Assembly (NCBI GenBank): GCA_977020255.1
Contig: CDROCS010000242.1
Location: 558,001-622,000, forward strand
DNA from: Obrimoposthia wandeli
Lineage: Eukaryota
Direction of reading: 5' to 3'
DNA length: 64,000 nt
How positions within the stretch are numbered: the first letter of the stretch is position 1; each line of letters starts with the position of its first letter. Positions 4,001 through 63,235 of this stretch are shown one piece after another. A model generated the notes under the pieces. That model did no database searches. It saw only the letters and a list, made by a program, of their open reading frames with translations, and was not told the DNA's origin. The translations under genes were made by a program, and so were the position numbers.

Positions 4001-7000
4001 CCAAACTCGACTATTTCATCTCAACCGGAAAATTCTGTGTGTAAATTTCCTTCGAAACGAGTGGTAGTTCTGATTGATTAGCATCAGAAAAAGTTAGCTT
4101 TCAATTTGACGATTCCATTGGTTTTTGACAGAAGTTTTCTCCATTACTAAGAGGAATATTGATCCGTTTATGTCCAACTTTTAATGCAATGAAACTTGTC
4201 TATGGTCTACTTTTTAAAATTAACAAAAATGTACAGCCACTTCCCAACTTTATATTGGAGTTTCACTTAATTAGTATTACTTAGTTTTTATGCAATTTTA
4301 GGGAGATTTTAGTTAGTTTTTAGATATTCTTGTCTTAATATTGATCTGTTTTTTGCATTATAATTAAAAGAAAAAACTTTAAAACTACTTTCCCGTGCCT
4401 TTCACGTTGTGGGTTTCAATTTGAGGTTCTTTTTGAATGGAGTCATCTTATGCTGACACACCTCTTAATGACGTGGGTTGCTCGGACAGGCATTTTTATC
4501 TTTTCAGTCGTTTGAGCTGGTGTATCATTTTAAATAATGTATTTCCAACTTTGTAATGTTTGTAGTTTATTACTAGGGAGGTTGGAGAAAGAGATTTGAA
4601 GTTGTTATTTTTCTAATTTTCGTCACACCGAACTTTTATGTTGTAACTGATAGTACGACTTGACAAAGAAAACTCGATGGTTCACAGGATATTGATTCGT
4701 TTTCAAAAATGGCGGTCAAAATCAAAATATACAATATTGTTTAAGTAAACTAATGAAAAATGTATTTACCGAAAAGGATACGAGGGTTTAGAAGCATATA
4801 GTTCATTTTGGGACATTGTATGGAAATTGTAATGCAAAATACGGACCATCTGATGATATACAGAAATGGAATTATGTTATTAAGGTGACACAGGTATTTT
4901 AAGTGCAGCGATTTGCTAGTGGTTTTCTCACGTCATGGCAAAGATTTGACTCGTCTCACATCTAATTTCTAACCATGCAATACTTCGTAATTTTGTTTCT
5001 GATAGCTTATAAAATAATCAAAACATTGACAATAACAAGATAGTCGGGTGCTTAGACTTTGAACAAAACATTCTAGTGATTGTACCAGCACTTTAATTAG
5101 ACTACTCATAAATCTAAAAAATATAAAATGCCTTACTAAAATAATAATATCCGGATTTCGGAAATATCCAAATAAAAGAGATTCCATAATTTCCTTTCCA
5201 GCAATTGAATACATTTGATGGTTTTCTGTTGGATTTAACAGTACTCAAAAAGAGGAAGTGTTTGTCATTAAATCTTATTTTAATATAAACTACTGCAACG
5301 TACCTGTGACAGGCAGCAGCAAAAAATACGGGTTTTAGCCCCCTTTCATTGACATTTTTCTTCCATTAAGTATTTAAATTTTATTATTAAAAAACAATGA
5401 ATTAAAAATGCTGTAAATTCCCAATATAAAAGATTGTTTGATGCGTTTAGCAAGAAGAGGAAAAAATGAATTTGTTGTCAAAATTAAAACTATATATTTT
5501 TGTTATTGTTTCTAATTATTTTTGAATTTCATTGTTTATTTTTTTAGAATTAAAAGTTAACGTTGTTCAGTTCTTTATGAATCACATTGCATTTTAATGT
5601 TTTAAGTCAATATTTATTTAAAAACCACATATTTAAATTTCTGTATAATGGCATTAGAGGATCCGTTTTGCAGTATAATTTCTGGGAATAAATTCATATT
5701 TCTATTTCCCCACAAACTGACTACAAGACTTGGTTTCTCACAAAAACTGACAACCTTTTTACACAGAACAAACTTCACTTCAAACTTGTGCTGAATCACA
5801 AAATGTCTGTCTGTATAAACGATATGCTCTGTAAAGTGTAACGACATCACAAAACGGGCCTTAATTGGCAAAAATTCAAATCAAATTTGAATTTTACTAA
5901 TTGCTGATTAAACAAACTGCTTAATAGGTAATTAATTATCAACATACCCACTCCATGATCGAACCCTATCATCAAACAAACAATTATGGATTTACAAAAA
6001 CAAATTCCCACAACATCAACATACCCAAAAAAAAATGCCCCAAAACCAAATCTCCATTTTACTTTGCTTCTGATTTCCTCAAACTACCTACTTAAATTCT
6101 ACATACTACCTTAATCCGCAGTTATCAAACTTAACTTACGAATTGCCCTAACTATCTCTTTACCATGACTTTTTATTCTTGCAACCCTAAACCTACCATC
6201 ACTACCTGGTATTAATTCGATTACCCTTCCTAACGGCGAAGTTCCTCTTTCTTTTTACTTGTTTAAAATTAAAACAACATTTATTTTAGAGGTATCACAC
6301 CATTGAGAAACTACTTATTTCATCCATCGATTCCATAAATGTTGGTTAAGCTCTTGAATTAACCTCCAACGACACCTGACTCCTCTTTTGCTTTTAAATA
6401 AGCTTTTTTGGGAAATCTTCACCTATAAACAAATGGTTTAGAGTTAACGCCTCAGGATGACCTTCATTTGTTCCTTTATAACTAATTGGTCTTGAATTAA
6501 CCATCTGTTCTACTTTTATCAAAACTGTGATAATTCTTCATCGGTCATCTCGGCATTGTTCAAGATCTTAAACATGGCTCGCTCCACTGACTTTACCATA
6601 ACTCCCAAAATGTGGCGCTCTAGGTCAATTAAATATCCATCTAATCCTGTTGACTGACATTTCCTTTTGCATCTTGAGTTCATCGACCTATACCTCTTCT
6701 AAATCATTCACCACTCCCACAAAATTCTTCCCATTATCTGATATAAATGTATCTAGTTGACCAATTCCACATATCAATCGTTTCAAAGCCTTTTTCAAAT
6801 GCGTCAGTGTCCGGGCCGTAGCTCAGTTTCAAACGAACGGCTCTCGTTTGTAAACAAGTAAATAAACAAACATATCACGTTTTCTCTTTTTACCTCGCTT
6901 GGTCAAATTGGTCCAATAAAATCTACCCCAACTCTCGCAAAAGCTCTTAGGGGTTCTTCGAAGCGAAAACTGGGTAATATTGCATTATTTGAGATATGGG

Positions 7001-10000
7001 ATTTGCTTTAAATTTGATACAGGACATGCTTTGCTTTTCTACTTTTCTGATCAGTGATCTCACTTTATATCATAAACTGGCGTTGTGTAATATTTAATAG
7101 ATCTTGAACAACTGCATAATATTTTTGTTTCTCATGTTCCTCCTTGATTAATATCCAAGTTATCCAACCTGTTCCTGACAAAATTATGGGATATCGCGAA
7201 TCAAAGTCTTAAAATCTGTGCGTGAACTAGTCTGGAATTGGATCACATAAGTTACGAATATATCAATATATATATCAACCTTTCGCTGTTATTAATCTAT
7301 ATGAACTTAATGCTTTATCTTTTATCTTAGTCTGTATACTCTTTCTATTAAGTAAGGCAAACAAGGTATATAAGAGGACACTTTTATTAATAACAGCCTT
7401 GATCGCAATTATCTTAAAACTACTATCTAGCTAAATTCTCAAAATCTCAATTAAAGGGACTTGCATAAGTATACGAATGCTTTCTATTACAAATTCGCTT
7501 TTCTTCCTCTTTATCAATATACTAACAATGTTATATAATTCTAAAACCCTTAATTCACATTCCAGCTGCATAGCCTTAATATTTACTACTCACCATCCCC
7601 ACACTGAGACATTGACAGTACCTCCTGTATTTTTAATATATATCTCATACTTTAAAAAAACTCTTCGCTGCCAACGGTTGGCTTTAGTTGAGGCATCCTA
7701 ACCTCTACAACTTCAACTACTACTATGTATCTAAGAAAAGCCTTAAAGTCCCTGTCATACATAAACTTCATGCATTTGCCATCAATATTTACACCAAAAA
7801 CTCCTTCATATTCCACACCATAAGATCATCACCCAAACAAGCATTCTTAGCCAAGGAACCTACTAATGGAGCTACACTCTTGCGAGCCTGGGATTGAATC
7901 ACATGTTCGTCTTGCTACATTCATCCCCAGTCTGTTTAAGTCAACTACATCAGCAGTTTCCTTTGCTGCCAGAGAGACCACAAGATCAGAATTATTAACT
8001 GTTTTTCCAAGTTCATGACTAAAAGCTGAAAGGTAGCCCATTTGATTACCAAGGGGTTGAGAACGCACGACAGGATCCCACTATCGAGATACCATGAACT
8101 GGGAAAAACTGTTAACAACTCTGATCTGGTGGTCTCTCTGTCGGCGAAGGAAACTGCTGGTGCAGCTGAAACCCATTCTTCTCCTCATGGTCCGTTTATA
8201 GTGGCCCCTAGTCACTTCGTACGCATTCACTTCATATATCATCGCCGAACGAGCTTCAGTACTAAATTTCATATTGTGTGGTATAACCACGCTTCTGTTA
8301 TTATCTGTTGGACATAAATTCAGATTTGTATTTTTCCTAAAACTGCCTACAACTTGGATTTTCAGAAAATTGATTTCAAAACTTGGTTTCTCACTAAAAC
8401 TGACAATATTCTTAAAAAAGAACTTCACTTCAAACTTGTGCTGAAACACCAAATGCGTGGCTATTATATACAAACAAAGTGCAACGACATCACAAAACGG
8501 GCCGTATTTGAGTGGTTTATAAATAAATATGGACTTAAAACATTAAAACGCAGTGTGATTCATAAAGAACTGAGCAACGGCGCTGATACGTTGCAGTAGT
8601 TTATTTTAAATTAAGATTCAATGACAAACACTTTCTCTTTTTGAGCTTTAACAGGCCAACGGAAAACCATCAAATATATGCAATTGCTGGAAAGAAAATG
8701 ACCTGCATTACCCATCATTACTCATTATCAAACACTTAGCATAAGTTTCATAGGAAATAAAATATGATTATCATTATCTTTCATGTGTGTATTGATAAAA
8801 TCGTTGGGAAAAATCATAAATCTCTAAAGCAGTATGCTACTGTAGCTAAATTTATTGGCGTTTCTAGGCAACTTATGCATTTGGATTTGCTCGATCGCAT
8901 ATGCAAATTATCAGCTTTTTTGATAAATGTCTGCTAAACTTTATAAATTCATGCAACAAATCGTTATTTTATTATGAAATAGAAGAAGAAATTACGTTAA
9001 GGCTGCTTTTTTTGATAAATGATTTACAGAAAAACTACCGAAACTGAAAATATTTCCCGACTGCTAGTGAATAATTTATCGAGTTAAAAAATAGGTACTC
9101 AGTATAATTAATTGTCCCCACTTGAATGTGCCCACCTCCATACGGTGACTGGCGTTAGTTGGTTTCCGGGGATATGGATCGTCGGGGGATGTAGTTATAA
9201 GTGAGTCAATGTTTTGCGTTTCATTTACATGGATACTTTCTTGAGTTACTTGCAATACTTCATTTATTTGTAGATATTGGAATGAAAAAAGTTAATGAAT
9301 ATGAAACTGACATTTTAACAATAATAAATAAAAAGTGCATTATATTTTTATGAGGTAGATATTATCCTTTGTAATAGGTTTTAAATAGTAATTTCTTCAG
9401 CTGCTTCTTGAATTTTTCAACATTGTTACAGTTCCTCTACACATAGATAAATTGTTTTAGAAATTCGGAGTATTGAAATATCCGCACGAAATTTATTTAA
9501 TTAGATAGATAAATCTGTATTTTAAGCTTATAAACCTAACAACTACACACAACTGTTACTCGAACACGTCATCTTCACATTATAATTATCAAATTATTAA
9601 TTATAAAAATAATAATTTTAATAAAATTTATTTTGTTTTTCGATTTTTATGTAAATTTAACAAATTTATGCTGATTAGAATATGAAAGATTTCTTCAGGC
9701 TCTTTTGGCGTAAATTCTTTGGTTTTAGCTTCAATTACATCTTTGTAGTCGACATCCTGAGTATCGAACAACAGTTTTTATTAAGTTCGTTACCATGAGA
9801 CTTGAACACCTGCATTGTCTATTTTTGTTAATCCAAAGTATAGTCTATGCTCAGTAATTTCTTCTATTGTACTTTTCACTTAAGCTTCAAATCCGGTGAT
9901 ATTTCTATTTGTGCAATGATAAATAATCTTCTTCTATACATCTCTCATGCTGCTTGTTGTAACTTCATTCCAAGGTTCATTGATGTTTTTTACTCAGTTA

Positions 10001-19000: not shown

Positions 19001-22000
19001 TCTCATAATTGTCTTTCCTACAGATAGCTGTCGTAGTTTTTGTAACTGAAAGAAGAACCACCAGATTTAGTGTACACAATAGAAACTTATGCCACCTTTC
19101 CTGAGTGTGTTCTTGAATATCTAACATAAAATAAAAACTGATAATCAGTGCGTCCCATAAATGTGCATAATTAAATCAGTAAACTAATGCAAATTCAATG
19201 TTGTATTTAACAAAGCAACAATATAATCGGTACTTATTATATGTATTAATAGTTTTTAATAGCCCCATTAAGTCTTGAACTATAATTGCCCATTTAATTA
19301 ATAATCTACCTTATTTCCATGTAAATTATAGTTTTGAAATGTTCTAACAAATTAATTTGATTCTCGTACAGTTTGTTTCAAGTAATCCTTAAAGAAAAAA
19401 ATCATATGGATGAGGTCAGGGGAGCAATCTTGAGGGGCAACTAAACGTTAAAAGTACAATCCATTACTCGATTTGCAGTACCTTCCGCCAATAAAATGTT
19501 TGATGAGTCATAAATTTTAACAAAAGATTTCGGTCACTTATTCAGTTTTCGTCAAATAGTGGTGGGAAAGTTAGATTTTAGGAGGAGAAGTGATCCATCC
19601 ACTAGTATGGCTCCGCTGAAGTTGTAGACGAGTTTCCATTATTAATGATCATTAGAAGAGTTGTATTTACATACAGATTGACTGAGAGAGATAAACTGAA
19701 ATATTTCAAATATTCCAGACTTCATTTTCATTATTAAGTACCATTCATGTGGTATTTATTTGCTCTATGTTGACAATTAAAGACTATCTAGATGAATAAT
19801 ATATTCCTGTTCCATTGAAACGGTTTGCATGCTAATTTCTTTTATATTAATACAATTAGATTTTATCATTAAAAACAATATATAGTGTATATATAAACTT
19901 TTTTGAAACCGAGTTAATTTATTGAATTTTGACTGAGAAAAAAACTTTACTGGTTGTTTGTTAAAATATCACTTTGATACAATTAAAAATATTACATTTT
20001 GCATTTTTATTACGCTCAGTCAATTTAAAATTTTTGAAAAAATATATTTTATTTTAGAACATGACTATAAACATTTTAAAAATCATTTGCTCTTACCGTT
20101 TTTCTCCGCGTTTAAGCTCACAGAAATCCGAAATTTGGACATTTTGCAGAGAAAAGGGCTGATACGTGGGTCTATAAAAGAATTGATTTTGTTTATCTAA
20201 AACCCATTATATCATTCATCAGTTTTCATTCATTGACCCACTCAAGTTGCACAGTGACAGAGCATCGTCATTCAGGTTAGGCTTCTCCTCTTTGTTTTCA
20301 TCGTCCATATTGTCTATTTGATTGAGAAAATAAGTGTACATGCTTGAAAACATGTGATTTTATCTTCTAAATCGTCTGGTAATTTTTGAGCGATCTGCCT
20401 ACTTTTCTAAAGTGCCAAACTCTCGCGTTTGATGAAACGAGTAAATCAAGTATTACTGACCATGAAATGCTTAAAACCATCCGAAACATTTATCGGTACA
20501 TGTTTTTGTTTTGAGGCTGTTATTATTTTCTAGAAAAAATATAATTGAGTGAAACTTTTCTTTTACAATTGAACCAAGTTTTTTCCTTCTGAAACTTTCT
20601 AGATTAGGTGTTTTTTGAATGGTTGAAGCTTTAACCTTTAAAATATATATGTTGACATTTTGGATGTTTTGTTTGAAAATGAGGTTTTTGGAGCTATCTC
20701 GCGGTATATGAATTCACCGGGATCTGCAAATATTCTAAATAATCTGCAAATCAAAAATTATTTATAATGCAGTATCATGATAATATTAAGAAAACCGAAA
20801 CCATTTGCTTCTGCATATTGCGCTTCACTGTTGCTATTTATAGACAAATTCATCACAGTATGTCGTGATAATATTTTCAACAGATCCTTGTAGACAGAAC
20901 GAGGAAACAGATTGCGTGGGTCTACATGTATATATAGCAGTCGACTCCGTGTGAAAAAATATTCATAATAATCTATTTTACGTGGAATCTGAAAGTGCAT
21001 CTACTGGATGTACTGACATAAATAATGAATTTTACTGTATAGTTGATTCAAACATGTGTCAATCTTGGATATTATAAAACTAATTGAGTATCACCTTTAG
21101 TTACAAAAATAAAATGAAATTCAACACTTGTTGTGTATGTGTGTGTGCTAATTCTAAATTATTACATAGATGTTTGAATCTTTTTGATTTTTATTGTTTT
21201 ATGTTCTTCAGAGTATTTAAAAATTCACTAATTTTAATCTCTTGGGATTATTATCAGTGTAAAGATTTCCCAAATTAAATAGGAATTCACATTAAAAAAT
21301 TTTGCCTAAAAAATGCAAATTCTTGCGATAACTCCCAGCTTGTAAACATAACAGAAACTGTGTTTAAGAGATACTTCAAACGGCGACTGAACAAATGCCC
21401 ATGTGGACAAATTCCAAGTGAACAAAAGCCTAACTGAACAAAAGCCCAAGTGAACATAAAACAAGTGAACAAAATCCCAACTGAACAAAAGCCTAACTGA
21501 ACAAAATCCCAACTGAACAAAAGCCTAACTGAACAAAAGCCCAAGTGTACAAATTTTAAGTAAACAAAATACCAAGTGAACAAAAGCCAATGGGGGACAG
21601 AATCCCAAGTGAACAAAAGCCTAACTGAACAAAAGCCCAAGTGTACAAATCCTAAGTAAACAAATTACCAAGTGAGCAAAATCCCAAGTGGACAAAATCC
21701 CAAGTGAACAAAAGCCAATGGGGACAGAATCCCAACTGAACAAAATCCCAACTGAACAAAAGCCTAACTGAACAAAAACCCAAGTTTACAAATCCTAAGT
21801 AAACAAAATACCAAGTGAACAAAAGAAAATGTGGACAAAATTCCAAGTGAGCAAAATACCAAGTGGACAAAATCCCAATTGAACAAAAGCCAATGGGGAC
21901 AAAATCCCAAGTGAACAAAAGCCAATGGGGACAAAATCCCAAGTGAACAAAAGCCAATATGTGCAAATAGAAAATGGAAATGGAAAATGTTCTCCTTAGG

Positions 22001-31000: not shown

Positions 31001-32683
31001 AAAATTGCACATAAAGAATTTCGTATCTAACTGTCTAGATCGGTCATTCCTAGATGCCTAGTCTCGCAAGTATTGCACTGCTGAATTATGTCGGGACATG
31101 GATAATAGAAAGTGTGGATGAGTTTCCCGGGTTAATTGGCTGCAGCTAATGAGTTTGGCGTTCTCAGAATAGTGAAAAATCGAGGTAGTATCAAATTGTG
31201 AATTATTTCCCCGACTGTATGTTCATGGGCAAATTAGGAATACCGGTGCATCTTGATTTAGGAGAGATTATTACAATAATCACTTTTATAAAACCTCTTT
31301 CTTCTAGATTCTATTTTTTCTGATTAACAAATTACATTCTCTATTTATCCTATTATAAGATGGGACTTACTTGCCTATAAAAGGTGTGTCTTAAACGTGT
31401 ATTCGAATTTATTCATTTCATCATCTTCTGGAATATCATTTAACTATTCGGGTCTAAATCCTGAATCAGTACTGTAAACTGCATTTTTACTAATAAAAAC
31501 TAATCAATGAAGTGAGGATATAGTTATAAAATTTACTCACAAAGATTATTTTGTTTTAATTTTCAAATATACCTATATCCTCGGCCTTGATAAAAAGTCC
31601 AAATCTGATTAACCTATATATGCTTTTCACGTAGTCAAAAAAATATGTCCATGGAACCGTTATAAATTTGAATCCAGCTTCATATTCCGTTAGGTCGTCA
31701 GTTGCAAAGAATATTCGATGAGATTTCGTGTTTATTTCGGGGAAAATAACAATCATCATCTGTTGTCATTCCAGTAATTACGTTTACTCGGCCACCACGT
31801 TTTAAGTCTTAACCATGATTTAAATAGTGTGAGTATTTTATTGTACTTTTCTTTTTGCTAAAACTTTATAGAAAGCATCTAAACGACACTTTACAATAAT
31901 TTTTAATACTCATCTTTTTCCAAACTAAGAAAGTAGAGAGCTTTCAAAAGTTGCTTGACAAAATTTATGAAGTTCGTATTTTTCCATTTTACACATTTAA
32001 ATTTTTGATTGACAGATTCAATTGTTTGTCATGTTATGAAAGAAATATTTTCGAATGCCAGTCACTCATTATTTAAGAATTTGATGCCACTATTTTAATT
32101 TTTAAAAATTACAAAGTTCAAAATTTGTAACGCTCAAATTGATTAAATAGGCGAGCATATCTAACTTCATCTTTAAGAAATGCTCATTTCTGTAAAATCT
32201 CATTGACTGAAGTGTTGTTTTTATCTGTCAAAAATATTTAACAAAATGTCATAAATTATTAAATCAGTCATATTTCGACATTTCATATTAAATGTGTATT
32301 GCTGTTATTTTATCATCGGTTATTAATTTTTTTCTGTATTAAACGATTAAAACATTTTTCATAATTAAACTACTGACAATAATAAATAGGCTGATTTTAA
32401 TAAATTATTTACTTGCACAATTACCTTCCTTTACAAATACTTAACGATTCAGGAATACTGCTTCCCGCAAGTATTCGATCGTCAGTATCTGAAACGGTTT
32501 TACAGCATATCAGAGAAGAACCAATTCGATGTGGAGCGGTACAATGACCTGCGTGAGCAATTGGCTACAGTTCAGAGCGACCAGCGCCGTTTGCGGGACC
32601 CGTTGCTACTGAATCTCCCTCTGCAGCAGCTGCCAACAGACCGCGATGAATTGGAACACGAGGTTCACACACGCCACCACTAG
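951..32683 (+). CDS. MCU: Mitochondrial calcium uniporter, 3' four exons: join(951..1055,18732..18895,23545..23748,32453..32683); 5' exons lie upstream of the window
   Basis: All four exons have AG/GT boundaries with matching phases (1,1,0,0). They splice into an open frame [25 protein letters not shown]...[14 protein letters not shown]...[24 protein letters not shown]...[16 protein letters not shown]...[15 protein letters not shown]...HTRHH*. WDIMEP is the MCU selectivity-filter motif. Exons are GC-rich against very AT-rich introns. Confidence 0.96.
1860..2960 (+). mobile_element. Decayed hAT transposase (Charlie/GTF2IRD2-like)
   Basis: [26 protein letters not shown]...GKMLKRF...[11 protein letters not shown] pattern (ORF 2188-2601), with hATC-like remnants to about 2940. 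Confidence 0.65.
5185..5870. mobile_element. hAT-like remnant copy A, internally inverted relative to copy B
   Basis: 5690-5860 matches 8290-8500 directly; 5185-5290 and 5565-5635 match 8610-8700 and 8508-8577 in reverse complement. Confidence 0.45.
6100..7850 (-). mobile_element. Decayed BEL/Pao LTR retrotransposon pol (integrase plus DUF5641-like C-terminus)
   Basis: Minus-strand motifs [21 protein letters not shown] (about 6910-6980), [11 protein letters not shown] (about 6715-6745), [20 protein letters not shown] and [19 protein letters not shown]; many stops. Confidence 0.75.
8280..8710 (+). mobile_element. hAT-like remnant copy B
   Basis: ORF 8354-8599 ends with KRSVIHKEL, a degenerate hAT HCxxHxExL motif; homologous to 5185-5870. 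Confidence 0.45.
9700..10640 (-). mobile_element. Decayed pogo/Tigger (DDE_1) transposase
   Basis: Minus strand (P)MDQGVV...[12 protein letters not shown] pattern near 9930-10110. Confidence 0.45.
10650..11022 (+). mobile_element. mariner transposase C-terminal remnant with probable right end
   Basis: LQHDHGKVH...[18 protein letters not shown]...[16 protein letters not shown] is a degenerate HDNARPH / YSPDLAPSDF / W.KCI mariner series. Confidence 0.75.
11600..12130 (+). mobile_element. hAT transposase C-terminal dimerisation-domain remnant
   Basis: ORF 11806-12009: [38 protein letters not shown]. Confidence 0.6.
12860..13200 (-). mobile_element. Unclassified DNA transposon remnant (H-x2-DCYFC zinc-binding motif)
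   Basis: The minus strand reads [16 protein letters not shown]...FPVP; the superfamily cannot be assigned by eye. Confidence 0.35.
14300..14470 (+). mobile_element. Tc1/Tc3-like transposase remnant
   Basis: HQDGT...[17 protein letters not shown], matching WPPRSPDLNPLDFFLW. Confidence 0.55.
18732..18895 (+). CDS. MCU: MCU exon (coiled coil), 164 bp, phase 1 to 0
   Basis: ctttgcag|AG TCA ACG ... GAG AAC|gttagt; peptide [44 protein letters not shown]. Confidence 0.92.
21387..21958. repeat. 16-bp minisatellite, about 36 units, with higher-order blocks
   Basis: Units such as GTGAACAAAAGCCCAA, CTGAACAAAAGCCTAA and CTGAACAAAATCCCAA; the block with TACAAAT..TAAGTAAACAAA.TACCAAG recurs three times. 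Confidence 0.9.
23545..23748 (+). CDS. MCU: MCU exon (TM1-DIME-TM2), 204 bp, phase 0 to 0
   Basis: ttacag|CAG CGT GGG ... CGC CAG|gtcagt; contains [20 protein letters not shown]. Confidence 0.97.
25066..25167 (+). repeat. 5' LTR of Gypsy element A
   Basis: TGTAGTG...TTTTACAACA directly followed by a PBS; similar to 29117-29220. Confidence 0.7.
25169..25186 (+). promoter_or_regulatory. Primer-binding site, tRNA-Ser-like
   Basis: TGGCGTCGCGAGCAGGAT is close to the complement of a metazoan tRNA-Ser(CGA) 3' end (recalled as TGGCGTCACGAACAGGAT). Confidence 0.65.
25186..27060 (+). mobile_element. Gypsy element A, decayed gag-protease-RT, truncated after the RT core
   Basis: Zinc knuckle [14 protein letters not shown]; RT motifs [35 protein letters not shown]. 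Confidence 0.85.
27075..29041 (-). mobile_element. Gypsy element B, decayed gag-protease-RT N-terminus in opposite orientation
   Basis: Protease [11 protein letters not shown]; RT motifs [25 protein letters not shown]; gag ORFs at 28395-29041. Confidence 0.85.
29117..29220 (+). repeat. Diverged 3' LTR of Gypsy A
   Basis: Shares TTGTTTTAAT.TTAATATATTTA..TGCGTAATT and the TAATTTTACAACA end with 25066-25167. Confidence 0.6.
29774..29911. repeat. 69-bp tandem duplication
   Basis: AATAGATTTTACATATTTGAGAG...AACTATTTTTT occurs at 29774 and 29843. Confidence 0.9.
31372..31997. repeat. Interspersed repeat copy 1 (about 626 bp), unclassified
   Basis: Near-identical direct copy at 34664-35293; the two copies give near-identical 67-aa ORFs in the track. 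Confidence 0.9.
32453..32683 (+). CDS. MCU: MCU terminal coding exon, ends at TAG
   Basis: gattcag|GAA TAC TGC TTC; peptide [13 protein letters not shown]...FDVERYNDL...RRLRDPL is typical of the MCU C-terminal coiled coil. Confidence 0.94.
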   Translation, partial: EYCFPQVFDRQYLKRFYSISEKNQFDVERYNDLREQLATVQSDQRRLRDPLLLNLPLQQLPTDRDELEHEVHTRHH

Positions 32684-34663: not shown

Positions 34664-35293
34664 TGCCTATAAAAGGTCTGTCTTAAAGTGTATTCGAATT
34701 TATTCATTTCATCATCTTCTGGAATATCATTTAACTATTCGGGACTAAATCCTGAATCAGTACTGTAAACTGCATTTTTACTAATAAAAACTAATCAATG
34801 AAGTGAGGATATAGTTATAAAATTTACTCACAAAGATTATTTTGTTTTAATTTTCAAATATACCTATATCCTCGGCCTTGATAAAAAGTCCAAATCTGAT
34901 TAACCTATATATGCTTTTCACGTAGTCAAAATAATATGTCCATGGAACCGTTATAAATTTGAATCCAGCTTCATATTCTGTTAGATCGTCAGTTTCCAAG
35001 AATATTCGATAAGATTTCGTGTTTATTTCGGGGAAAATAACAATCATCATATGTTGTCATTGCAGTAATTACGTTTACTCGGCAACCACGTTTTAAGTCT
35101 TAACCATGATTTAAAGTGAATAGTGTGAGTATTTTATTGTACTTTTCTTTTTGCTAAAACTTTATAGAAAGCATCTAAACGACACTTTACAATAATTTTT
35201 AATACTCATCTTTTTCCAAACTAAGAAAGTAGAGAGCTTTCAAAAGTTGCTTGACAAAATTTATGAAGTTCGTATTTTTCCATTTTACACATT
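34664..35293. repeat. Interspersed repeat copy 2 (about 630 bp), unclassified
   Basis: TGCCTATAAAAGG...TTTTACACATT, a direct copy of 31372-31997. Confidence 0.9.
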
Positions 35294-48051: not shown

Positions 48052-49941
48052 TGTTATTAGGAAGGTTGGAATCGAACTAGAATCGTTCAGTCTCTAATTT
48101 CCATTCCCAGGCCTAGCCAAACTATTTTTAAAATACAAACTAACTTCGGCCTAACCGGCTATTTTTCAGACTAAATCACACTACAATGGTTTTAGGGTTA
48201 TATTCAGATAAACTGTACACAGCACACTTACATACCATAAAACACCTTCAGACTAGAAAAACCTTCAGACTATATAAACTAGGTTGGCCAAGATTTCCCA
48301 TAAAACCTAGCTCTGTTGGGTAATTAATTAATTAATTTAAAGTCAATTTAAATTGACATTTTATAGTTATCTAAAATGCCCACAATTAGGGAGGTTTTTC
48401 AAATTCAGCCTCCGACGGGGTGGTCCCGTTTCGCCCTGTCGGGCTCGTCAGGAAGGCGGCATATAGATAAAAATAGATTTATGGCAGAATTTTCCGCCCA
48501 GTCTCCCAGCCTAGCAGCAGATCTTCGCTACCGGGATTCTGCGGATCGGGTTTTTCATCTGTCCAAATGCGATGGGTTTGGCATTTGGTTCTCCGGATCT
48601 CCCAATGGATCCCAACTTCCTCCCTCATCATCCAGAAACGACAACATCATCCACCTCTTCACCGACTACAGATCTCCCTGGCTGCTGTGACTGTGTGTGC
48701 GGGATTGGACAGCAATCCGACAATCTGCCAATGTGTCTAACCGGCCACCCGACCATTCGCCATCACCGTCGTCATTCATCATGATTTTCCTGGCTGCCGG
48801 GATTCAATGTCCAGTCGGCAACAGTCAGCGGATAGGATAGTCAAACTGTGACTTTCAAACGCTGTAACTGTGACAGTGTGTGTTTTGTCGTCCCATCACG
48901 TGCATTTTCTCTCCTATAGCTTATCTATTGCCAATCCTGGCCTGATTTGTCAACGGCGTCTGTTCCTGCTTGACATTCTCCCATATTTAACTGCAGTGGC
49001 GGTGGTTGACTTCGCACAAAAAAGAAGCTGATTTTATTTAACACAAAACAAAATATAACAGAAACTACTGATTTGAAACTGCTTACGTCTATTTTATTTG
49101 AATCTCAAGATCAATCTATTATATAACAATTCAATTGGGATTTTTGTCAAAATAAAATATAACAGAAACTACTGATTTGAAACTGCTTACGTCTATTTTA
49201 TTTGAATCTCAAGATCAAGCCATTATATAACAATTCAATTGGGATTTTGTCAAAATAAAATATAACAGAAACTACTGATTTGAAACTGCTTACGTCTATT
49301 TTATTTGAATCTCAAGATCAATCTATTATATAACAATTCAATTGGGATTTTTGTCAAAATAAAATATAACAGAAACTACTGATTTGAAACTGCTTACGTC
49401 TATTTTATTTGAATCTCAAGATCAATCTATTATATAACAATTCAATTGGGATTTTTGTCAAAATAAAATATAACAGAAACTACTGATTTGAAACTGCTTA
49501 CGTCTATTTTATTTGAATCTCAAGATCAATCTATTATATAACAATTCAATTTGGATTTTTGTCAAAATAAAATATAACAGAAACTACTGATTTGAAACTG
49601 CTTACGTCTATTTTATTTGAATCTCAAGATCAATCTATTATATAACAATTCAATTGGGATTTTTGTCAAAATAAAATATAACAGAAACTACTGATTTGAA
49701 ACTGCTTACGTCTATTTTATTTGAATCTCAAGATCAATCTATTATATAACAATTCAATTGGGATTTTTGTCAAAATAAAATATAACAGAAACTACTGATT
49801 TGAAACTGCTTACGTCTATTTTATTTGAATCTCAAGATCAATCTATTATATAACAATTCAATTGGGATTTTGTCAAAATAAAATATAACAGAAACTACTT
49901 ACGTCTATTTATTTGAAAATCCAGCTCAATCATTTATAACA
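48052..49941 (+). repeat. Putative 5' LTR of the gag-env element (3' end better supported than 5' start)
   Basis: Ends ATAACA followed by 1 nt and TGGTGAGCTCGAC; the TGTTATTAG start is a guess; no second LTR in the window to confirm. Confidence 0.4.
49047..49915. repeat. Tandem array of about 8.4 copies of a 103-104 bp unit
   Basis: Unit starts at 49047, 49151, 49254, 49358, 49462, 49566, 49670, 49774 and 49877; nearly identical copies. Confidence 0.95.
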
Positions 49942-49942
49942 T

Positions 49943-49955
49943 TGGTGAGCTCGAC
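49943..49955 (+). promoter_or_regulatory. Putative primer-binding site
   Basis: TGGTGAGCTCGAC right after a CA LTR-like end; resembles a tRNA-Trp PBS (TGGTGACCCCGAC) with 2 mismatches. Confidence 0.45.
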
Positions 49956-51848
49956 TAAGAGCACAGAATCAAGGAAAAATTTAAAGGTCATATTTTGTTC
50001 TTTTATTTTATTTGCGATAATTTATTTGATAAATTTGTATATAAACCTAAAATTTTTTTTTGTGATTTGCTTATATTTATATATACCTAAAAGATTTTTT
50101 TTTGTGATTTGCTTATATTTATCATAATTATATTTAAGTTAGGAGTTTACATAACTCCAGATTGACATCTATTTATTGTAGCTTTTGATTGATATATTAC
50201 GTTTACATTACGATTTTTTTTTTTTGTTGCGCATTTGAACATTTACATATAAACTTTATAAAACTGAGTAGTTGTCATATATACAGTTGATTTAAGATTT
50301 TATTTGCTTTGGTTTTGTGGATATCATTTGTGTTTATTGGAGGATTGGAGATTTCGTTTACATTTTTAACTATCGTTTATTTATATATTGAATATTTTTT
50401 ATTCTTACTTAACAATTATATTTATCATTTTAAAAAAAATAAAAATTTCCACTATAGTTGAGGTGTTTGCCTCGTAAGTTTAAAATACTAAATAGTTAGG
50501 AATTTAACTTAAAAATTATATAAACTATTATTATTTTGAATATAATAGTTATATTTATCTTAATTTTGTGAGAGCCATTTGTAGTTTTGAGGGATTAAAA
50601 ATTTCTTTGCATTTTTAACTATAGTCTACTTATATATTGAATATTTTTATTTACTTAACGATTATATTTGTCATTTTTAAAATTCATATAGTTGAGGTAT
50701 TTGCAGCTGTGCACACAAGCCTCGTAAGATTAAAAACATAATTTTGTTTCCTGAAACATAGTCGGGTCCTGTTCTCTAATTTTCTTATATAATTTGAGTT
50801 GTGTTGATCATTTTAATCAAAAAAGTTATAGAAAAAATAATTTATTGGTTTTTGGAGTTCTGTTCACATAAAGGCTAAACACTGGCCGTTGTCGGATAGA
50901 GTAATCAACAAACAAAGCACAACTCAAATACAATAAATTTTGAGAAAATTTTAAAATTTTCCTTTGAACTGGTTTACCAGTAGAAAATTCGTTTTTTGAG
51001 AACTATAAATTGGAGTGGATTTATCTATTAGAGGCGTAAAAGTAAAATAAAAAACTAAAAAGATAATAAAAGTTAAAATAATCATATAAATATATTTTTG
51101 TATAAAAATAAAATTGATCAAAAAAATTAAAATTTTGTCGCAAATTGTCTTGTTTCCCAAGTTACGTCGAGTGCTATCATATAAAGACTATATACTGGTT
51201 GACGGTGGTAGTGCTCAAAGTGATAAGGGACAGAGATTGTTGAGATAAATTTTTGAGTCTTGTTATTGTACTAAAAAATTAAAAAACAAAATAAAATAAA
51301 AAACTTCGGAAAGATAAATTTTCTCCAGAGATTTTCAGAGAGCGTGTTTTTAATATTGATAAGAGAGTTTGATTTTTGAGATTGACTAAATAACTTTTAC
51401 GAATTCCACCGAAATATTTTTAGTTTCAGTACGCAGTACGCATTTTTCATTTGTGCAATATTTGATTTTGAAACTTTAAATAAATTATTAATAACACAAA
51501 CCCAAAGATCTATCACAAAAACAGACACACAAAATAAGTAAACAAAAACGTAGCGCTAGCCTTCACTGGAGAAGAATTCAAACAAGATTAGTTAGGACAG
51601 ACTCCAGTGAAAAAACAATTCAAAGACCCAAATCACAAATCAATTTTACAACAAATAACGATTTACTTACACAGACTTCCCCACTCTCAGAACATCTGGA
51701 CCTAACATTAACCTCAGATACAGAGAGTTTACCTTCACCTCAAACATCTGACTCGGATAGTTCGTCAGAGATAACGGAAGCAGTAGCCGTACCAGAACCA
51801 CCTATTGTACAAATAAACAACGAACAAATAATCGATCAACCTCAAATA

Positions 51849-54711
51849 ATGGCTGAACATAAATTAAATGTTCCTTTAGACGCTTTCAATGGCGATAAAT
51901 CTTCACTACCCGAATTTTTAAATAGATTTGATTCATTTGCTCAGGCATTGGAATGGACTAATGTAGAGAAACTTAGGGTTTTTCCGGCGTATTTAAAAGG
52001 TACACAATTTATAGAGGATTAAATAACGAACAGAAAGACACATGGGACCATTTAGTTCAGAATTTTCAAAATATGATTTTAGGAGCACAGTCTGAACAAA
52101 ATTACCTTAACCAATTTAGGCAACGTGAACAACATTTTGGAGAACCCACAAATATTTTTGCAGTTGAATTACGAAGATTAGCATTAAAATCATTTCCCGG
52201 AATTGAGGAAGTCTTAAGAGAACGTTTGCTCCTACATCAATTTCTATATGGGCTAAACAGTAAAATAAAAAATCACCCAGCACTACTAGAAGTAGAAAAT
52301 TTTCAGCAAGCTGTAAATAAGGCTCAACTTGTAGAAACAAGATTAAATATGTTACAACAATCTGAAGTTTCAGCATTAACCTTTGAAAAAATACAAAGAC
52401 CTACAACACCACCAAATTTCAATCAAACTCAAAACTATAACCCAAATACACAATCTAATTACCAAAGCCAATATACACCACCGACAAATAACTTTTATAG
52501 AAATCAAACAAACAGAAACTATACAGACTCACAAATTACACAAAGACCTTTCCAAAAAGTACAAATTGTGGACTGCAAAATCACACAATAGAGAATTGTT
52601 ATAAAATAACCAACAACAAATTTTGTAGATTTTGTAAAAAAGACAATCATACTATTGAAACTTGCCGAAAACTGTTATACAGACAAAGTAATAATATACG
52701 ACCACAAAATAATAACTTTAACAATCCTAATAATAATTTCAAAAATACAAATAGTAATTTTAGAAGCCCATATAATAACTTCAGTAATCAAAATAATCAA
52801 GCTAAATATTTTAATACTAATACAAAATTTTGTAAAATTTGTAATATGAAAAATCATAATACTGATGAATGTAGCAAACTAAATACAATGATGAACCAAT
52901 TTGGTAACACAATAATAAAACAACAACAACCACAACCACAGAGTCAAAAAACAGTACAGTTTAACAATCAAAATCAACAATATGCTTACAGAAACCCAAT
53001 ACATACTATTGAAAACACTGATATAACTCAGGAAACAGAAGAAGTTGCATTGATGAGATTAAGGCAACAAGAAATAGATAATCGCTACAAAGAAACACAT
53101 CAGCAATACCAAAACAATGAACAAAACACAAATAGTACCAACTCTCAATCCGAATTCGGAGAAATATTTAGAAACGGTTGTCTAACATTAGAAAAAAGAA
53201 CACAAATAAGTAAAAAAATAAATCAAACCACTCAAACACAAGATAAAAAATCGAAAAATAAAAATAAACAAAAATCACCAAAAAATAGTAAAAATTCAAA
53301 TCTTAAAAATACACATAATTTTAACAAAATCATCCAGAATTTATGGAAAATAATTCAAATAATATTTATGATATGTATAATTACAAATATAATAAAACCT
53401 ATAAATGCTCTTGAAGCATATGATTGTTCAAAATATAGTATTCAAAATAAATATTCACTAATGGATTTACAACAATGCGCCGACGCAGATCCAAATGAAG
53501 TAAAAGTTAAAACCACCAAGTTATTTCATGTATACCAGGAAACAGATTACATAAATACAGAAGTTTTCGAATGTAGAGTACATATGGAGACATTCATAAC
53601 ATATTGCGGACAACACAGCCATAATTCAATTGTTAAACCAGCATTAGGAAAAACACCAATAATTGTTGACGCGTTAAATTGTAAAGATGCTTTTGCAACA
53701 GGCGAACTGAGAATAGATAGAGAAATAAAGGTAAAAGCAATAAAAAACAAAATAATACAACAAATGATTACGGTGGTAGGAACTATCAAATCTGACGGAG
53801 AATGCACAACAGGGTCATATGTCGTAATGGGAGTTAAACAAAGTGGTTTAGTAGTTATAAAAAACTTTGAGGTAGAACTAAGAACATTTAAAACAACATT
53901 TGATCCATCTACAAATACCATGGTGACTATGCCATTCTGTGCAGCAAATATCGGATATTGTAACACAGGATCTTCAATTTTATACTATAAGGTAAAAACA
54001 GACCAATGTAAATTAATACTACTAAAATCAGAAAATTTCCAAATAATTCAAGGTCAAAGATTCAAAGTTGATCCAGAGCTAGATCAACGAATTCCAAAAA
54101 ATATACTTAAAAAATATAGAACTAGAAAAATACAAAAAACATCAACTCCAACTATTTTAATGTCAACAGAACAAGGTTCTGGAATGCGATTTATTAAAAA
54201 GAAAGAGGAATCCCGATGTGACACTCTATTTATACAACTAATTATAAAGGAATATATCTAAGTAAAGAAAAAATTTATAATACAAAAACTACACAAACAA
54301 AATTTGATATAAAAAATTACGATTATTTCAATAATAAATTAGATTATTTTTATCACAAAGGGTTGATGACAATAGAAGCTATCTATAGAGAAACAATAAT
54401 GAATGACTGTAAATTAAATCAAGAAATTTTGAAAACAAAACTAGCAATTATTGCTACAAATCCAGAATTAATAACACCATTATTACCGTTACCAGATGGT
54501 ACTTTCGGAAGAGTAATTGGAGAGGTACTATATACGTATCAATGCCAAAAAGTAATAGTTAATATAAGAAATCACAATAAATGTACCAAAGAATTGCCAA
54601 TTTCATACAAAAATCATTCATTATTTGTAGAACCAATCACCAGAATAATACTTTTTAACACATTCAGCATAAAAGAAATAAACTGTTCAAACATAATGGC
54701 ACCTCATTATA
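51849..54711 (+). pseudogene. Gag-Env polyprotein ORF of an LTR element (capsid, 3 CCHC knuckles, signal peptide, chuvirus-like class III glycoprotein); three -1 frameshifts; 3' truncated by the Polinton
   Basis: Gag LDAFNGDKSSLPEFLNRFDSFAQALEW and FAVELRRLALKSFP...LLHQFLYGL; knuckles (C)TNCGLQNHTIENC, CRFCKKDNHTIETC, CKICNMKNHNTDEC; then IIQIIFMICIITNIIKPINA-LEAYDC...ECRVHMETFITYCGQHSHNSIV...CKDAF; frames rejoin by single-base insertions at about 52008, 52558 and 54237. Confidence 0.8.
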
Positions 54712-54718
54712 AGTAGGT

Positions 54719-54932
54719 GGAAGGATGGAGTCTAAGCCACTTTACCCCCCCCTAAAGGGTGTCACACCATAAAAGGTGTCTTGCCACACCATAAGGGTAT
54801 ATGTTGCCTCACCTCTGGTGAGGCAACATATACCCTTATGGTGTGGCAAGACACCTTTTATGGTGTGACACCCTTATGGTGTGACACCCTTTAGGGGGTG
54901 GGGGGGTAAAGTGGCTTAGACTCCATCCTTCC
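54719..54932. repeat. Long inverted repeat (hairpin), 95-nt arm, TCT loop at 54814-54816
   Basis: The left arm 54719-54813 pairs with 54817-54932 apart from a 16-nt duplication and about 5 extra nt in the G-run. Confidence 0.95.
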
Positions 54933-54962
54933 TTGATTTACTACTATGGTCGTCCATAGTTT

Positions 54963-55400
54963 AAAGGGTCAAGTTGCTTAGTCTCCACCCTTCTTTTTGA
55001 GATATACCACTATGAAAGGGTCAAGTGGCTTAGTCTCCACCCTTCTTTTTGAGATATACCACTATGAAAGAGTCAAGTGGCTTAGTCTCCACCCTTCTTT
55101 TTGAGATATACTACTATGAAAGGGTCAAGTGGCTTAGTCTCCACCCATCTTTTAGTGATCTAGTCTCCACCCATCTTTTAGTGATCTAGTCTCCACCCTT
55201 CTTTTAGTGATCTAGTCTCCACCCATCTTTTTGTGGTCTAGTCTCCACTCTTATTTTTGGTTAACCACTAATTCAAAGGATCAAGTGGCTTAGTCTCCAC
55301 CCATCTTTTTGTGATCTAGTCTCCACCCTTCTTTTTGGCTAACTACTAATTCAAAGGATCAAGTGGCTTAGTCTCCACCCTTCTTTTTTGTGATCTAGTT
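54963..55400. repeat. Subterminal direct-repeat array, core TAGTCTCCAC(C/T)C, 11 copies
   Basis: Cores at 54979, 55031, 55083, 55135, 55161, 55187, 55213, 55239, 55291, 55317 and 55369. Confidence 0.95.
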
Positions 55401-55401
55401 C

Positions 55402-55565
55402 ATAATGAAAATTTATGATAAAGTTCACTCTTAACAATTAAGAAATGTGGTTTTTAACACACACATACACTATTTTATGTGAAATTTATGATAAAGTTCA
55501 CTCTTATCAATTAAGAAATGCGTTTTTTTTTTTAACACACACATACACTATTTTATGTGAAATTT
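55402..55565. repeat. About 80-bp tandem duplication in the Polinton subterminal region
   Basis: AAATTTATGATAAAGTTCACTCTTA...AACACACACATACACTATTTTATGTGAAATTT occurs twice. Confidence 0.85.
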
Positions 55566-55668
55566 AAACTAAAGTTTTTCCTAGGCTTTCACATTTATAG
55601 AATTATAGTAAAATTTATTTAAATAACATAAATTATATATTAAAATAAAATATCCTTAATAAATATAT

Positions 55669-56120
55669 TTATATACAATTTACATAATCAATACATAGAG
55701 AAAAACATTTCAAATAAGCACAATGTTTTCCGTGTTTTCTAAACGGACATCGAATATTTTTGGCATTTTCTTTAAATTTTTGAAACTTTTATTATAATTC
55801 ACAATTCTCAAATTTGGAAACATTCGTTTCACTAAATTAATTTTCTTTCCATCAATAGAATCCATAACATAGAATATTGTTTCAACATCATCAATATGAA
55901 TATCAGAGCTTTCACCTTCAAACCAGGATAACTGATGATGATGATTTATCAAATATAGATTTTTTCTTTTAACTGTAAATGATAAACTACTCCATGGTAT
56001 TTGATTTTTAAACACGTAATGAAATGGACAAGTCATATCATTCACATACATTATACATAATTCCTTTGGAATATATTCTCCATTATTATCAATAAAACAT
56101 TCTAAATCAATAAAAGCCAT
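55669..56120 (-). CDS. Polinton DEDD/DnaQ-like exonuclease-fold protein with Cys/His-rich tail (one -1 frameshift at about 55760)
   Basis: N-terminal FIDLECF...YIPKEL; the shifted frame gives IRCPFRKHGKHCAYLKC*. Confidence 0.6.
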
Positions 56121-56174
56121 TTGAAAATAAAATAAAATGAAATACTAAAATGATATATTTGTTTATACTTAAAA

Positions 56175-56555
56175 TTATTTGTGTTGAAGTTTCAACCATA
56201 AAAGACTCAGAGGTCCGCAGTTTTTAGTTAATGGATTCTGACATTTAACTCGATTATAGTAGACTGAAATGTTTTCTTTTTCAAGTGTAGACACCAACTT
56301 TGCAGGATAATAGAATCCAAAAGGATCAAACACTCGAATCTCGAATCTGTCAACGAATATTGCTATCCAATGCTCGCCTGGTAGATTTGAAGTATGAGTA
56401 TTGATAATGTAACCTCCGGGTTTTAATGATGGAATTTTATCCAATGAATATACTCCATTAAATTTGTTATTCAATAATATTTTTCCGGATTTATGAATTT
56501 CTAAAGTACTAATTTTAATAAAGAATATAATATAAAATAAGCTTACTTCATACAA
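56175..56555 (-). CDS. Adenain-like cysteine protease
   Basis: GVYSLDKIP...INT...PGEHWIA...FDPFG...CQNPLTKNCG (catalytic H, D, Q, C); the true start is probably near ISTLEI. Confidence 0.9.
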   Translation of the reverse strand: MYEVSLFYIIFFIKISTLEIHKSGKILLNNKFNGVYSLDKIPSLKPGGYIINTHTSNLPGEHWIAIFVDRFEIRVFDPFGFYYPAKLVSTLEKENISVYYNRVKCQNPLTKNCGPLSLLWLKLQHK

Positions 56556-57767
56556 TCACAGTTTTATTTTTCGTAATCTGAATTTCGGAATCAAATATTC
56601 CGTAAATCAAAACACTTGTTGGTACGGTCAAAGGAGAATTAAATCTAATTTCAAGTCTTAAATTACCAGTTTTAGGCACTTGAGTAGTGTTTATATCAAA
56701 ATCTGGTGCTAATAGAAAAGTGAAAATCGAACTTCCTGATTTAAAATCAGAAAATCTGATACCATTATTCAAGTTTTTATCTAAAATATTCATATTTCGA
56801 ATAATTGACTGCATATATGCTAATGAAAAATTGTTATTATCTAGATTATAAGTTTCTCGATAATCTGTATTTCTAGCTAATGATATTGTTGAAACATTAA
56901 ATGTATCGAACGTAGAAGATTTAACTTTGTATTCCTTACCACCCTGAGGTGTATCTTTGAAAGCAATCAAAATGAACTTGGGTAAACGATAGTCTCCGAA
57001 TATTTGATCTTTATTAAGTTCCAAAGAACCTGAGGAATTGAATATGTTACTAACTGAGTTTTTCTAATTGGGTAAACTGCATTCTGACTTTGCAAACCTA
57101 ACTGATGTCCAATCATTACTGAAGAATCAACTTTTACTCTTCTAACATACAATCTAGCATCTAGAATTTGAATAATTGGTTTTGAAGTTTCTGAATAGAG
57201 CGAAAAATTATGCTGATTTCTCATAAATCTCAAATGAACATTAATCCCTGGAATCAAATATTTTGGTTGTTCAAAGAAATCTAATCTAATTGAATTACAT
57301 AATGAAAATATTTTAGATTCACTAATCCATTGTTTACGATTTTCTGCTTCATCATCATACCCACTACATTCAAGGTTAGTATACTTGGTATCACTACTAA
57401 AATTCAAAAGAGTATCGAATATAGCCTTATGAGTATACGTTCCATTTCCTCCTTCAACCTTTACATTATTAAGTGTTAGAATAACATCTCTAAACAAAGT
57501 TTGAAACATGTAATTCTCTGGAGTTACATCACTATCTTTCATTAAATCAGTACCATCTTCATTTACAACTTTTAATTTAATATTTAACAAAGTATCATTC
57601 AAATCCAGATAATCTTCTTCAGATGCATGAATATTAAATTCTATGTCATTTAAATTTTTTCCAGTAATTGAATTGATTGGAAATATTTCTTCAAAACATG
57701 AATTTTCAATCACTACTTGAGGTAGTGGTCTATCGAAAATACACAATTCAGATTTTATACTAGTCAT
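56548..57767 (-). CDS. Polinton double-jelly-roll major capsid protein (frameshift near 57030)
   Basis: KSELCIFDRPLPQVVIE, IEFNI...YLDLNDTLL, VRRVKV, then RLPKFILIAF...FTFLLAPD...GNLRLEIRF...VLIYG; ORFs 56967-57767 and 56548-57024 rejoin at IPQ(G)SLELNKD. Confidence 0.88.
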
Positions 57768-61535: not shown

Positions 61536-61856
61536 TCAAAATATTCGGTCGCTGTATGAATCGGTCCAGATGAGACTTCTTCCATCTTCTTGAATATCCG
61601 AAATCTTTGTTTCACCATAATTAATTAGAAATTGTTTCGTATTTATATAATTTTTTTTAATGTATGTCATGATATCGTTAACTTGATCTTGAAAATCTAA
61701 ATTTCTAAGACCTAAAATTACGACCTTTCCAGATGTGAAAATATTTACACACAATGGATTGAAAATATTTAATCTTAAGCCTGGGAAAACCTCAGGGTCA
61801 AATGAACATGCGTTAATAAGTTTAATGTTTTGTACAATAAATTGACTTGTAAACAT
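61536..61856 (-). CDS. TATA-binding-protein-like single-repeat protein carried by the Polinton
   Basis: SFDPEVFPGLRL...VNIFTSGKVVILG matches the TBP repeat consensus SYEPELFPGLIY...LLIFVSGKVVLTG. Confidence 0.75.
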   Translation of the reverse strand: MFTSQFIVQNIKLINACSFDPEVFPGLRLNIFNPLCVNIFTSGKVVILGLRNLDFQDQVNDIMTYIKKNYINTKQFLINYGETKISDIQEDGRSLIWTDSYSDRIF

Positions 61857-62805
61857 AATTTATTTTTGATATATTTTCAATTTAATATGTTGTAAGTTAT
61901 TACTTTAATATAATTTACAACAAAAACTTCAAGTAGTTTACTTATTAAACATAAGTTTAATGTTTTGTACAATAAATTGACTTGTAAACATAATATATTT
62001 ATGCATATATTAACTTTAATATGTTGTAACTTATTACTTTAATATAATTTTCAACAAAAACTTCAAGTAGTTTACTTATTAATCATAAGTTTAATGTTTT
62101 GTACAATAAATTGACTTGTAAACATAATTTATTTTTGATATATTTTCAATTTAATATGTTGTAAGTTATTACTTTAATATAATTTACAACAAAACTTCAA
62201 GTAGTTTACTTATTAAACATAAGTTTAATGTTTTGTACAATAAATTGACTTGTAAACATAATTTATTTTGATATATTTTCAATTTAATATGTTGTAAGTT
62301 ATTACTTTAATATAATTTACAACAAAAACTTCAAGTAATTTACTTGTAAACTACAATATTTATTTGTTGTTGTATATATTCAGTTTAAAATGTTGTAAGT
62401 TATTACTTTAATATAATTTTCAACAAAAACTTCAAGTAGTTTACTTATTAATCATAATATTAATGATTGATCAATAAATTGACTTGTAAACATAATATAT
62501 TTATACATATATTCACTTTAAAATGTTGTAAGTTATTACTTTCATATAATTTTCAACAAAAAAAAAACTTCAAGTAGTTTACTTATTAAACATAAGTTTA
62601 ATGTTTTGTACAATAAATTGACTTGTAAACATAATTTATTTTGGTATATTTTCAATTTAATATGTTGTAAGTTATTACTTTAATATAATTTACAACAAAA
62701 ACTTCAAGTAATTTACTTGTAAACTACAATATTTATTTGTTGTTGTATATATATATATTCAGTTTAAAATGTTGTAAGTTAATACTTTAATATAATTTAC
62801 AAATA
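61816..62805. repeat. Tandem array of about 134-bp units (about 8, some shortened)
   Basis: The ATGTTTACAAGTCAATTT motif on the minus strand has its ATG at 61856, 61991, 62125, 62259, 62493 and 62632. Confidence 0.92.
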
Positions 62806-62989
62806 TCGTAACAACCAAGTTAACTTACCAGATAACTGTGTAGTTAAGGTAATTTATCATTTAGTCTGAAACAATGAATACCAAATCGCCTACAATGCAT
62901 GTATAATTTTAATTGTCAACTACAGTAAACTATAATTACTCTTTGTGTACAGTAATAATTTCCAATATATTAAAGTAAACATTTACAAA

Positions 62990-63235
62990 ATATAATCTGT
63001 TTACAAGTCAATTTATCATACAAATCCTTAAATTATGATTAATAAGTAAACTACTTGAAGTTTGTTGTTGTAAATATATTATGTTTACAAGTCAATTTAT
63101 CGTACAAATCATTAATATTATGATTATTAAGTAAACTATTTGAAGTTTTGGTTGTAAATTATATTAAAGTAATAACTTACAACATATTAAAGTGAATATA
63201 TGCAAAATTATATTATGTTTACAAGTCAATTTTCG
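62990..63235. repeat. Inverted copies of the 134-bp unit
   Basis: The plus strand carries TTTACAAGTCAATTT, GTAAACTA.TTGAAG and AAAGTAATAACTTACAACATATTAAA, the reverse complement of the 61816-62805 units. Confidence 0.88.

Follow-up and report, generated by a model that had tools for sequence, protein, structure and literature searches.

The window, a 64,000-nucleotide stretch of an Obrimoposthia wandeli contig, contains the left end of a defective Polinton that interrupts the env gene of an LTR-type element, and a long hairpin lies at this end. The features on both sides of the junction are listed below in window coordinates.

52501..54716, plus strand: host site, an LTR-type element's env-like gene (Monjiviricetes fusion; Pfam PF24664), split over two frames and truncated at the Polinton end
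54712..54718, plus strand: probable left terminus, AGTAGGT, placed from the sequence, where the env ORF breaks off mid-domain at an (AGT)2-like motif
54719..54813, plus strand: outer (left) hairpin arm, 95 nt, with one repeat-unit core, a C8 run and three GGTG micro-repeat units
54814..54816, plus strand: loop, TCT, flanked by CACC and GGTG
54817..54932, plus strand: inner (right) hairpin arm, 116 nt, with an extra 16-nt unit and G5-T-G7 against C8
54940..54945, minus strand: internal end-like motif, AGTAGT, able to pair with the terminal five bases
54943..54960, no strand: small hairpin with a 7-bp stem, separating the large hairpin from the repeat array (predicted fold)
54963..55399, minus strand: array of 52-, 26- and 78-bp units, oriented like the right arm
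55409..55576, no strand: AT-rich 73/78-bp repeats, probably the inner part of the terminal inverted repeat (TIR), laid out as in the related locus L049
55710..61859, minus strand: Polinton genes, namely a 143-aa ORF, adenain-like protease, major capsid protein, penton-like ORF, chromo-domain ORF, rve integrase, A32-like ATPase and TBP-like ORF

The left end reads AGTAGG, five of the six letters of the (AGT)2 end motif that PMC8097293 reports for vertebrate Mavericks. The env-like gene matches PF24664 with E-values of 1e-29 and 1e-25, and the match stops at profile position 436 of 653. The six bases ahead of AGTAGGT would form one half of a target-site duplication (TSD); neither its partner nor a second TIR was found within the 64-kb window. 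In sequencing run X2, a loose end at 54706 leads into env copies that continue differently. The LTR-type element (48376-54716) has gag-like frames directly before the Monjiviricetes-type fusion glycoprotein, with no pol seen between them. It is preceded by a GC-rich stretch and eight copies of a 104-bp repeat (49044-49899), and the element is multi-copy in the sequencing runs.

The Polinton gene nearest to the hairpin end is the conserved 143-aa ORF. The integrase ORF matched rve (PF00665) at E 2.6e-10, with 40.9 bits against a cut-off of 32.6, as expected of a Polinton. A model of the N-terminal frame of the major capsid protein (pLDDT 79.8) has a jelly-roll fold and matches vaccinia D13, PBCV-1 and iridovirus capsids at E ~1e-7, in keeping with a Polinton capsid. 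The protease (Peptidase_C5, E 0.0034) and ATPase (Pox_A32, E 0.0009) matches are both below cut-off and were counted as Polinton genes; the intact ATPase of the related locus L011 passes Pox_A32. The penton-like ORF was assigned by position only. Capsid and ATPase are each split over two frames here and are single ORFs in relatives, which marks this copy as defective. On the right, a 134-bp array cuts the element off at ~61815, and no polymerase gene was found within the 64-kb window (best E 1.0). Neither a Rep/HUH nickase nor a resolvase was found among 14 Polinton-side and 4 env-side ORFs. The TBP-like gene (PF00352, E 5e-7), conserved across the Polinton clade at ~148 aa in relatives (L002, L003, L011, L019, L026 and L049), retains only its last part, at 61536-61859. 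The sequence that cuts it (61816-63232) begins as an AT-rich 134-bp array and closes with a block of this repeat in inverted orientation (62948-63232), a foldback-like arrangement; a 178-bp array occupies the window from 63526 onward.

The first-pass annotation had described a near-perfect hairpin of ~214 bp with a TCT loop, beginning seven bases inside the AGTAG terminus, whose arms differ solely by a 16-nt duplication and about 5 nt at a G-run. Each of these points was borne out. AGTAG stands at 54712 and the arm runs from 54719. When the 95 nt of 54719-54813 were aligned globally with the reverse-complemented 116 nt of 54817-54932, there were no substitutions and two gaps, of 16 and 5 nt. 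Internally the arm is built as an array of micro-repeats containing GGTG, an additional unit of which (54858-54891, 2.1 copies) accounts for the 16-nt asymmetry. The perfect inner stem is 59 bp (54755-54875) and the outer stem 33 bp, while the second-longest perfect palindrome anywhere in the 64-kb window has arms of just 11 bp. The predicted DNA fold of 54700-54945 reached −121.8 kcal/mol against −33.1 ± 3.5 for shuffles (z −25.4), and none of 200 shuffles folded equally well. The hairpin has 51% GC, compared with 26% in the Polinton genes. The complement of the terminal AGTAG is present at 54941-54945, and with it the fold-back could extend to 234 nt. This 5-bp pairing, across a 2x8 internal loop, lies 1.7 kcal/mol above the minimum and has a predicted probability of 0.17-0.25; in the minimum-energy fold the terminal bases are unpaired. 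An Rfam search of the hairpin region gave only generic miRNA-hairpin matches, none of the six at the gathering score (best 52.9 of 84 bits), and the Pol III B-box pattern is absent from 54700-55420.

The arm is related to the repeats that follow it. The array at 54963..55399 contains 11 cores besides the right-arm core, all of them in the orientation of that arm. Six AGT(A/G)GT motifs occur on the minus strand, the first at 54945 and the other five within the array. The outer 29 nt of the left arm match the right arm, which is the first internal unit, at 29/29 positions and the six full internal units compared at 23-25/29, so that the outer end of each arm is indeed a variant of the adjacent repeat core, as originally noted. 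Given the 29/29 identity and the internal AGTAGT, it seems that the first internal unit was copied by fold-back, up to an end-like motif, to give this end. The hairpin very likely lies inside the TIR, and in the explanation favoured below it is the outermost part of the TIR of this Polinton family. Derivation of the arm from a TIR unit speaks against an independent MITE, a reading that was rejected.

Contigs of four sequencing runs (X1, X2, X3 and X5, out of five found; all k-mer contigs) were aligned to the window. X2, X3 and X5 come from one sample, which may be the assembly's own source. Relative to the mean of 11 Polinton-gene bins, depth, which in k-mer contigs is no copy number by the tool's own caveat, was 1.04, 0.87 and 0.84x at the two hairpin bins (X2, X3 and X5), 0.25-0.27 at ten env bins and 1.65 at the repeat array. 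The modest array excess suggests that contigs were placed once, in which case ~1x per arm would correspond to two arms per end. At 54938, 366,429 of 368,265 X2 depth carries a different letter from the window, hence sequence just inside the hairpin exists in many copies, from which the present one differs by private changes; at least ~7 sites differing from the bulk of contigs are listed in 2.2 kb. A joint from 54741 to 56757 was present in all three organism runs (depth 45, 15 and 7), and another from 54815 to 55492 in two of the three (63, 22 and 0). In these joints the arm keeps its outer orientation and continues into inner sequence, as in other, deleted copies; their shorter sides are 21-27 letters long. 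Joints from 54854-54891 to 54812-54816 (depth 66-173, direction not given) are most simply copies with other micro-repeat orders, or read errors. None of the contig pieces listed spans the hairpin, and none of the 24 loose-end rows listed, with 2112 further rows, falls at 54712. TCT and AGA loop isomers are indistinguishable in k-mer contigs, both orientations yielding identical words. In X1, a marine metagenome with a small share, depth was zero at both hairpin bins, and env and the repeat array were thinly covered.

From the near-gene depth and the two joints, sister copies seem to carry the hairpin; it probably characterises the terminal repeat of the whole family and is not an artefact. 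The concern raised at the outset, that the palindrome might be missing from reads, is thereby eased by the depth of 0.84-1.04x and the joints, albeit in contigs of one sample. At 54893, 33 X2 contigs diverge from the right arm; their loose letters are mixed (agreement 0.74) and contain a short palindrome, pointing to a sister subfamily or, alternatively, to errors of the reads in the G-run.

Searching with the capsid piece gave 120 homologues (best 51-63%), and 50 related loci were taken, 48 metagenome and two genome contigs. Polinton gene order is conserved among them. A polymerase-like ORF of 1100-1300 aa is present in six of the 50, most loci being too short to tell. Where at least 1 kb is available past the last structural gene (n = 8), the ORF lies there in five loci, at the far end in one (L049) and is found in neither place in two. 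Family-B polymerase motifs are visible in it, and 27-70% of the members of its nearest Atlas clusters have DNA_pol_B_2; searches of Pfam (0 of 3 at E<=1), PHROGs and PDB sequences did not name it. Close relatives thus appear, by sequence, to encode a pPolB-type polymerase. In the major capsid protein tree (34 of 51 rows; 17 omitted as too short), the window protein falls within a starred 21-row group that includes five polymerase-bearing loci, without a closer starred set. Neither the window nor the related loci examined contained a Rep/HUH or helicase-primase gene. The polymerase ORFs of L003, L009, L011 and L049 each contain a short endonuclease-VII-like stretch (Pfam E ~1e-4, below cut-off), which would bear on hairpin or cruciform ends if it had resolvase activity.

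L049 is the only one of the 50 loci that reaches a probable end, itself inferred from the ACTACT motif. Its layout is like that of the window, with the last gene, TIR start, AT-rich repeats, GC-richer repeats and ACTACT in order, and the TIR start is a diverged match to the opposite L049 end. This locus has the same terminal gene as the window and a polymerase at its far end; therefore a terminal gene with no adjacent polymerase does not imply a polymerase-free family. Shuffles folded as well as the terminal 234 nt of L049 (z 0.0). Across the clade, then, the hairpin is not universal (0 of 1 related end seen), nor is it generally needed. No nucleotide match to the hairpin occurred among the 48 related loci tested (best E 0.038, outside the hairpin), and the 26-nt arm pattern had no match in viral_contigs, where MCP searches found no relative. 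Self-palindromes of at least 50 nt among the related loci occur only in L011, which has two, internal and AT-rich. They are adjacent imperfect palindromes between genes (794-957 and 222-719; 90 and 74 nt), beside an ORF that resembles a ubiquitin-conjugating enzyme. The Polinton contigs L049 and L050 sit in bacterial MAGs (Lysobacterales and Planktothrix), probably as eukaryotic contamination. L005 begins, upstream of the Polinton genes (1-1260), with a membrane-enzyme fragment that looks bacterial and an ORF resembling a dual-specificity phosphatase.

In parvovirus ITRs and poxvirus telomeres, a hairpin forms the end and primes synthesis, and a Rep nickase or resolvase acts on it. The present hairpin resembles these terminal hairpins of 100-250 nt with asymmetries, but it begins 7 nt in from an integrated end, and no nickase or resolvase gene was seen. 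Closer in setting are the endogenous virophages (subtypes 1, 2, 5 and 6) and PLV subtype 4 of Halocafeteria seosinensis, for which bioRxiv 10.64898/2026.07.28.741278 describes palindromes inside TIRs beside the TSD and offers hairpin priming, or alternatively accidental annealing, as explanation. In both cases the palindrome is part of the TIR and adjoins the site where an element with an rve integrase has inserted. However, the subtype 5 palindrome is 52 nt there against 214-234 nt here, and those elements are protist virophages and PLVs with mostly non-pPolB replicases, whereas ours is a Polinton from a pPolB-bearing clade. The first-pass view that terminal hairpins are undescribed for such elements is therefore limited by the case of virophages and PLVs; for animal-type Polintons our literature search, with the founding Polinton papers and supplements outside its scope, found no long terminal hairpin. 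The accessible parts of PMC11296320, PMC6431247, PMC5182062, PMC11161782, PMC12747079 and 10.64898/2026.10.13.758929 likewise mention none. Compared with the Polinton/Maverick TIRs of PMC8097293, the element shares the (AGT)2-type end (five of six letters) and the capsid, protease, integrase and ATPase genes, and its TIR of ~1 kb is within the 46-1447 bp range; unlike there, the second TIR, TSD and pPolB were not found in this window, and the terms 'hairpin' and 'palindrom' are absent from that main text. Streptomyces telomeres are likewise protein-primed; their first ~180 nt contain palindromes, and fold-back templates repair of the 3' end, as shown in PMC5449611. They differ in having several short palindromes and Tap/Tpg proteins, in being bacterial and in end-patching only. 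This likeness is a functional analogy, with no homology claimed. The literature also indicates a hairpin-forming deletion derivative of the kalilo plasmid (from a reference title), and TIRs made of repeated units are known in PgVV.

We propose, with confidence about evenly divided, that this is a fold-back-derived end of a protein-primed element, and that end repair and homogenisation of the arms use the hairpin as their template. The 3' end of a single-stranded excision or strand-displacement intermediate would fold back at a GGTG/CACC micro-repeat and be extended along itself for ~110-130 nt, copying an internal repeat unit with its end-like ACTACT. The copied ACTACT would then be a new usable end that later spread with the family. 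Replication would still begin by terminal-protein priming at AGTAG, and the single-stranded end could fold into the hairpin, one arm being re-copied from the other. Such re-copying would repair eroded ends and keep the arms identical while the number of repeat units slips. A fold-back origin is favoured because the arms are identical save for repeat-number changes and because the fold-back ends next to the internal AGTAGT. To our knowledge, the start of Polinton replication after excision has never been shown, and the protein-priming model rests on homology; protein priming is the likeliest start here since close relatives encode a pPolB-type polymerase. Co-occurrence of pPolB and DDE integrase has been reported.

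The hairpin might be functionless, a single fold-back inverted duplication in a founder copy that was amplified along with it. The L049 end without a hairpin fits such a passenger, and zero mismatches in 95 bp would be expected of a young family anyway (at least ~7 sites in 2.2 kb differ from the bulk of contigs). Long perfect palindromes are unstable in double-stranded DNA, yet depth suggests retention in most copies, and comparable terminal palindromes recur in other lineages; we consider this reading unlikely. Somewhat less probable still is a self-priming origin, in which the excised 3' end pairs with the internal AGTAG and rolling-hairpin-like synthesis yields flip/flop loops. Terminal CTACT can pair with 54941-54945, no polymerase gene lies beside this end though five of eight loci have one there, and hairpin priming has been proposed for virophages and PLVs. 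Pairing probability is just 0.17-0.25, however, the end bears a protein-priming-type motif, no Rep/HUH or helicase-primase gene was seen in the window or the loci examined, L049 with the same terminal gene has a polymerase at its far end, and the preprint links palindromes to non-pPolB elements. Of the initial proposal of a cruciform or self-priming origin, or a flip/flop-type end, within the TIR, the location is thus very likely, self-priming is disfavoured by the weakly paired 3' end and the pPolB-type polymerase of relatives, and a cruciform or flip/flop loops are conjectural.

A read fold-back chimera, or a duplication in this copy alone, could explain the zero depth of the independent-study run X1 on both hairpin bins and the rare joints near the apex (depth 66-173). 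It is very unlikely, since the flanks differ and cohere (end motif and cut env gene on one side, repeat array on the other), the arms differ in repeat number, and depth and the two deletion joints point to other copies. About as unlikely is a tiny, fully palindromic, Polinton-ended element (AGTAG...ACTACT) at, or leaving, the end of the large one. End motifs do bound 54712-54945 in both directions, but depth is not above gene depth, the adjoining inner stretch (54938) is equally deep and in sister copies connects to the repeat array, and 54712-54945 has neither a surrounding TSD nor a second copy in the window. A bolder combination, which we regard as improbable, is a hybrid-ended Polinton lineage with a protein-priming-type motif and 230-nt fold-back priming on internal end-like repeats, by which the element could replicate or rebuild its ends, producing flip/flop loops even with no polymerase of its own; fully palindromic Polinton satellites would arise from this reaction too.

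The 2026 observation in virophages and PLVs is extended by this long terminal hairpin, found in a multi-copy family of a pPolB-bearing clade. It would show how ordinary TIRs could turn into hairpin telomeres and snap-back satellites, and loop orientation at many ends of one genome could separate hairpin from protein priming by sequence alone.

Other repeats occur elsewhere in the window. A direct repeat of 631 bp with 97% identity is spaced by 3.3 kb (31372-31997 and 34664-35293), and a 16-bp unit forms an array of ~36 copies at 21388-21955. Degenerate inverted repeats (5189-5628 with 8512-8699) are separated by ~3 kb, and a self-palindrome of 230 nt (71%) lies at 7941-8169.
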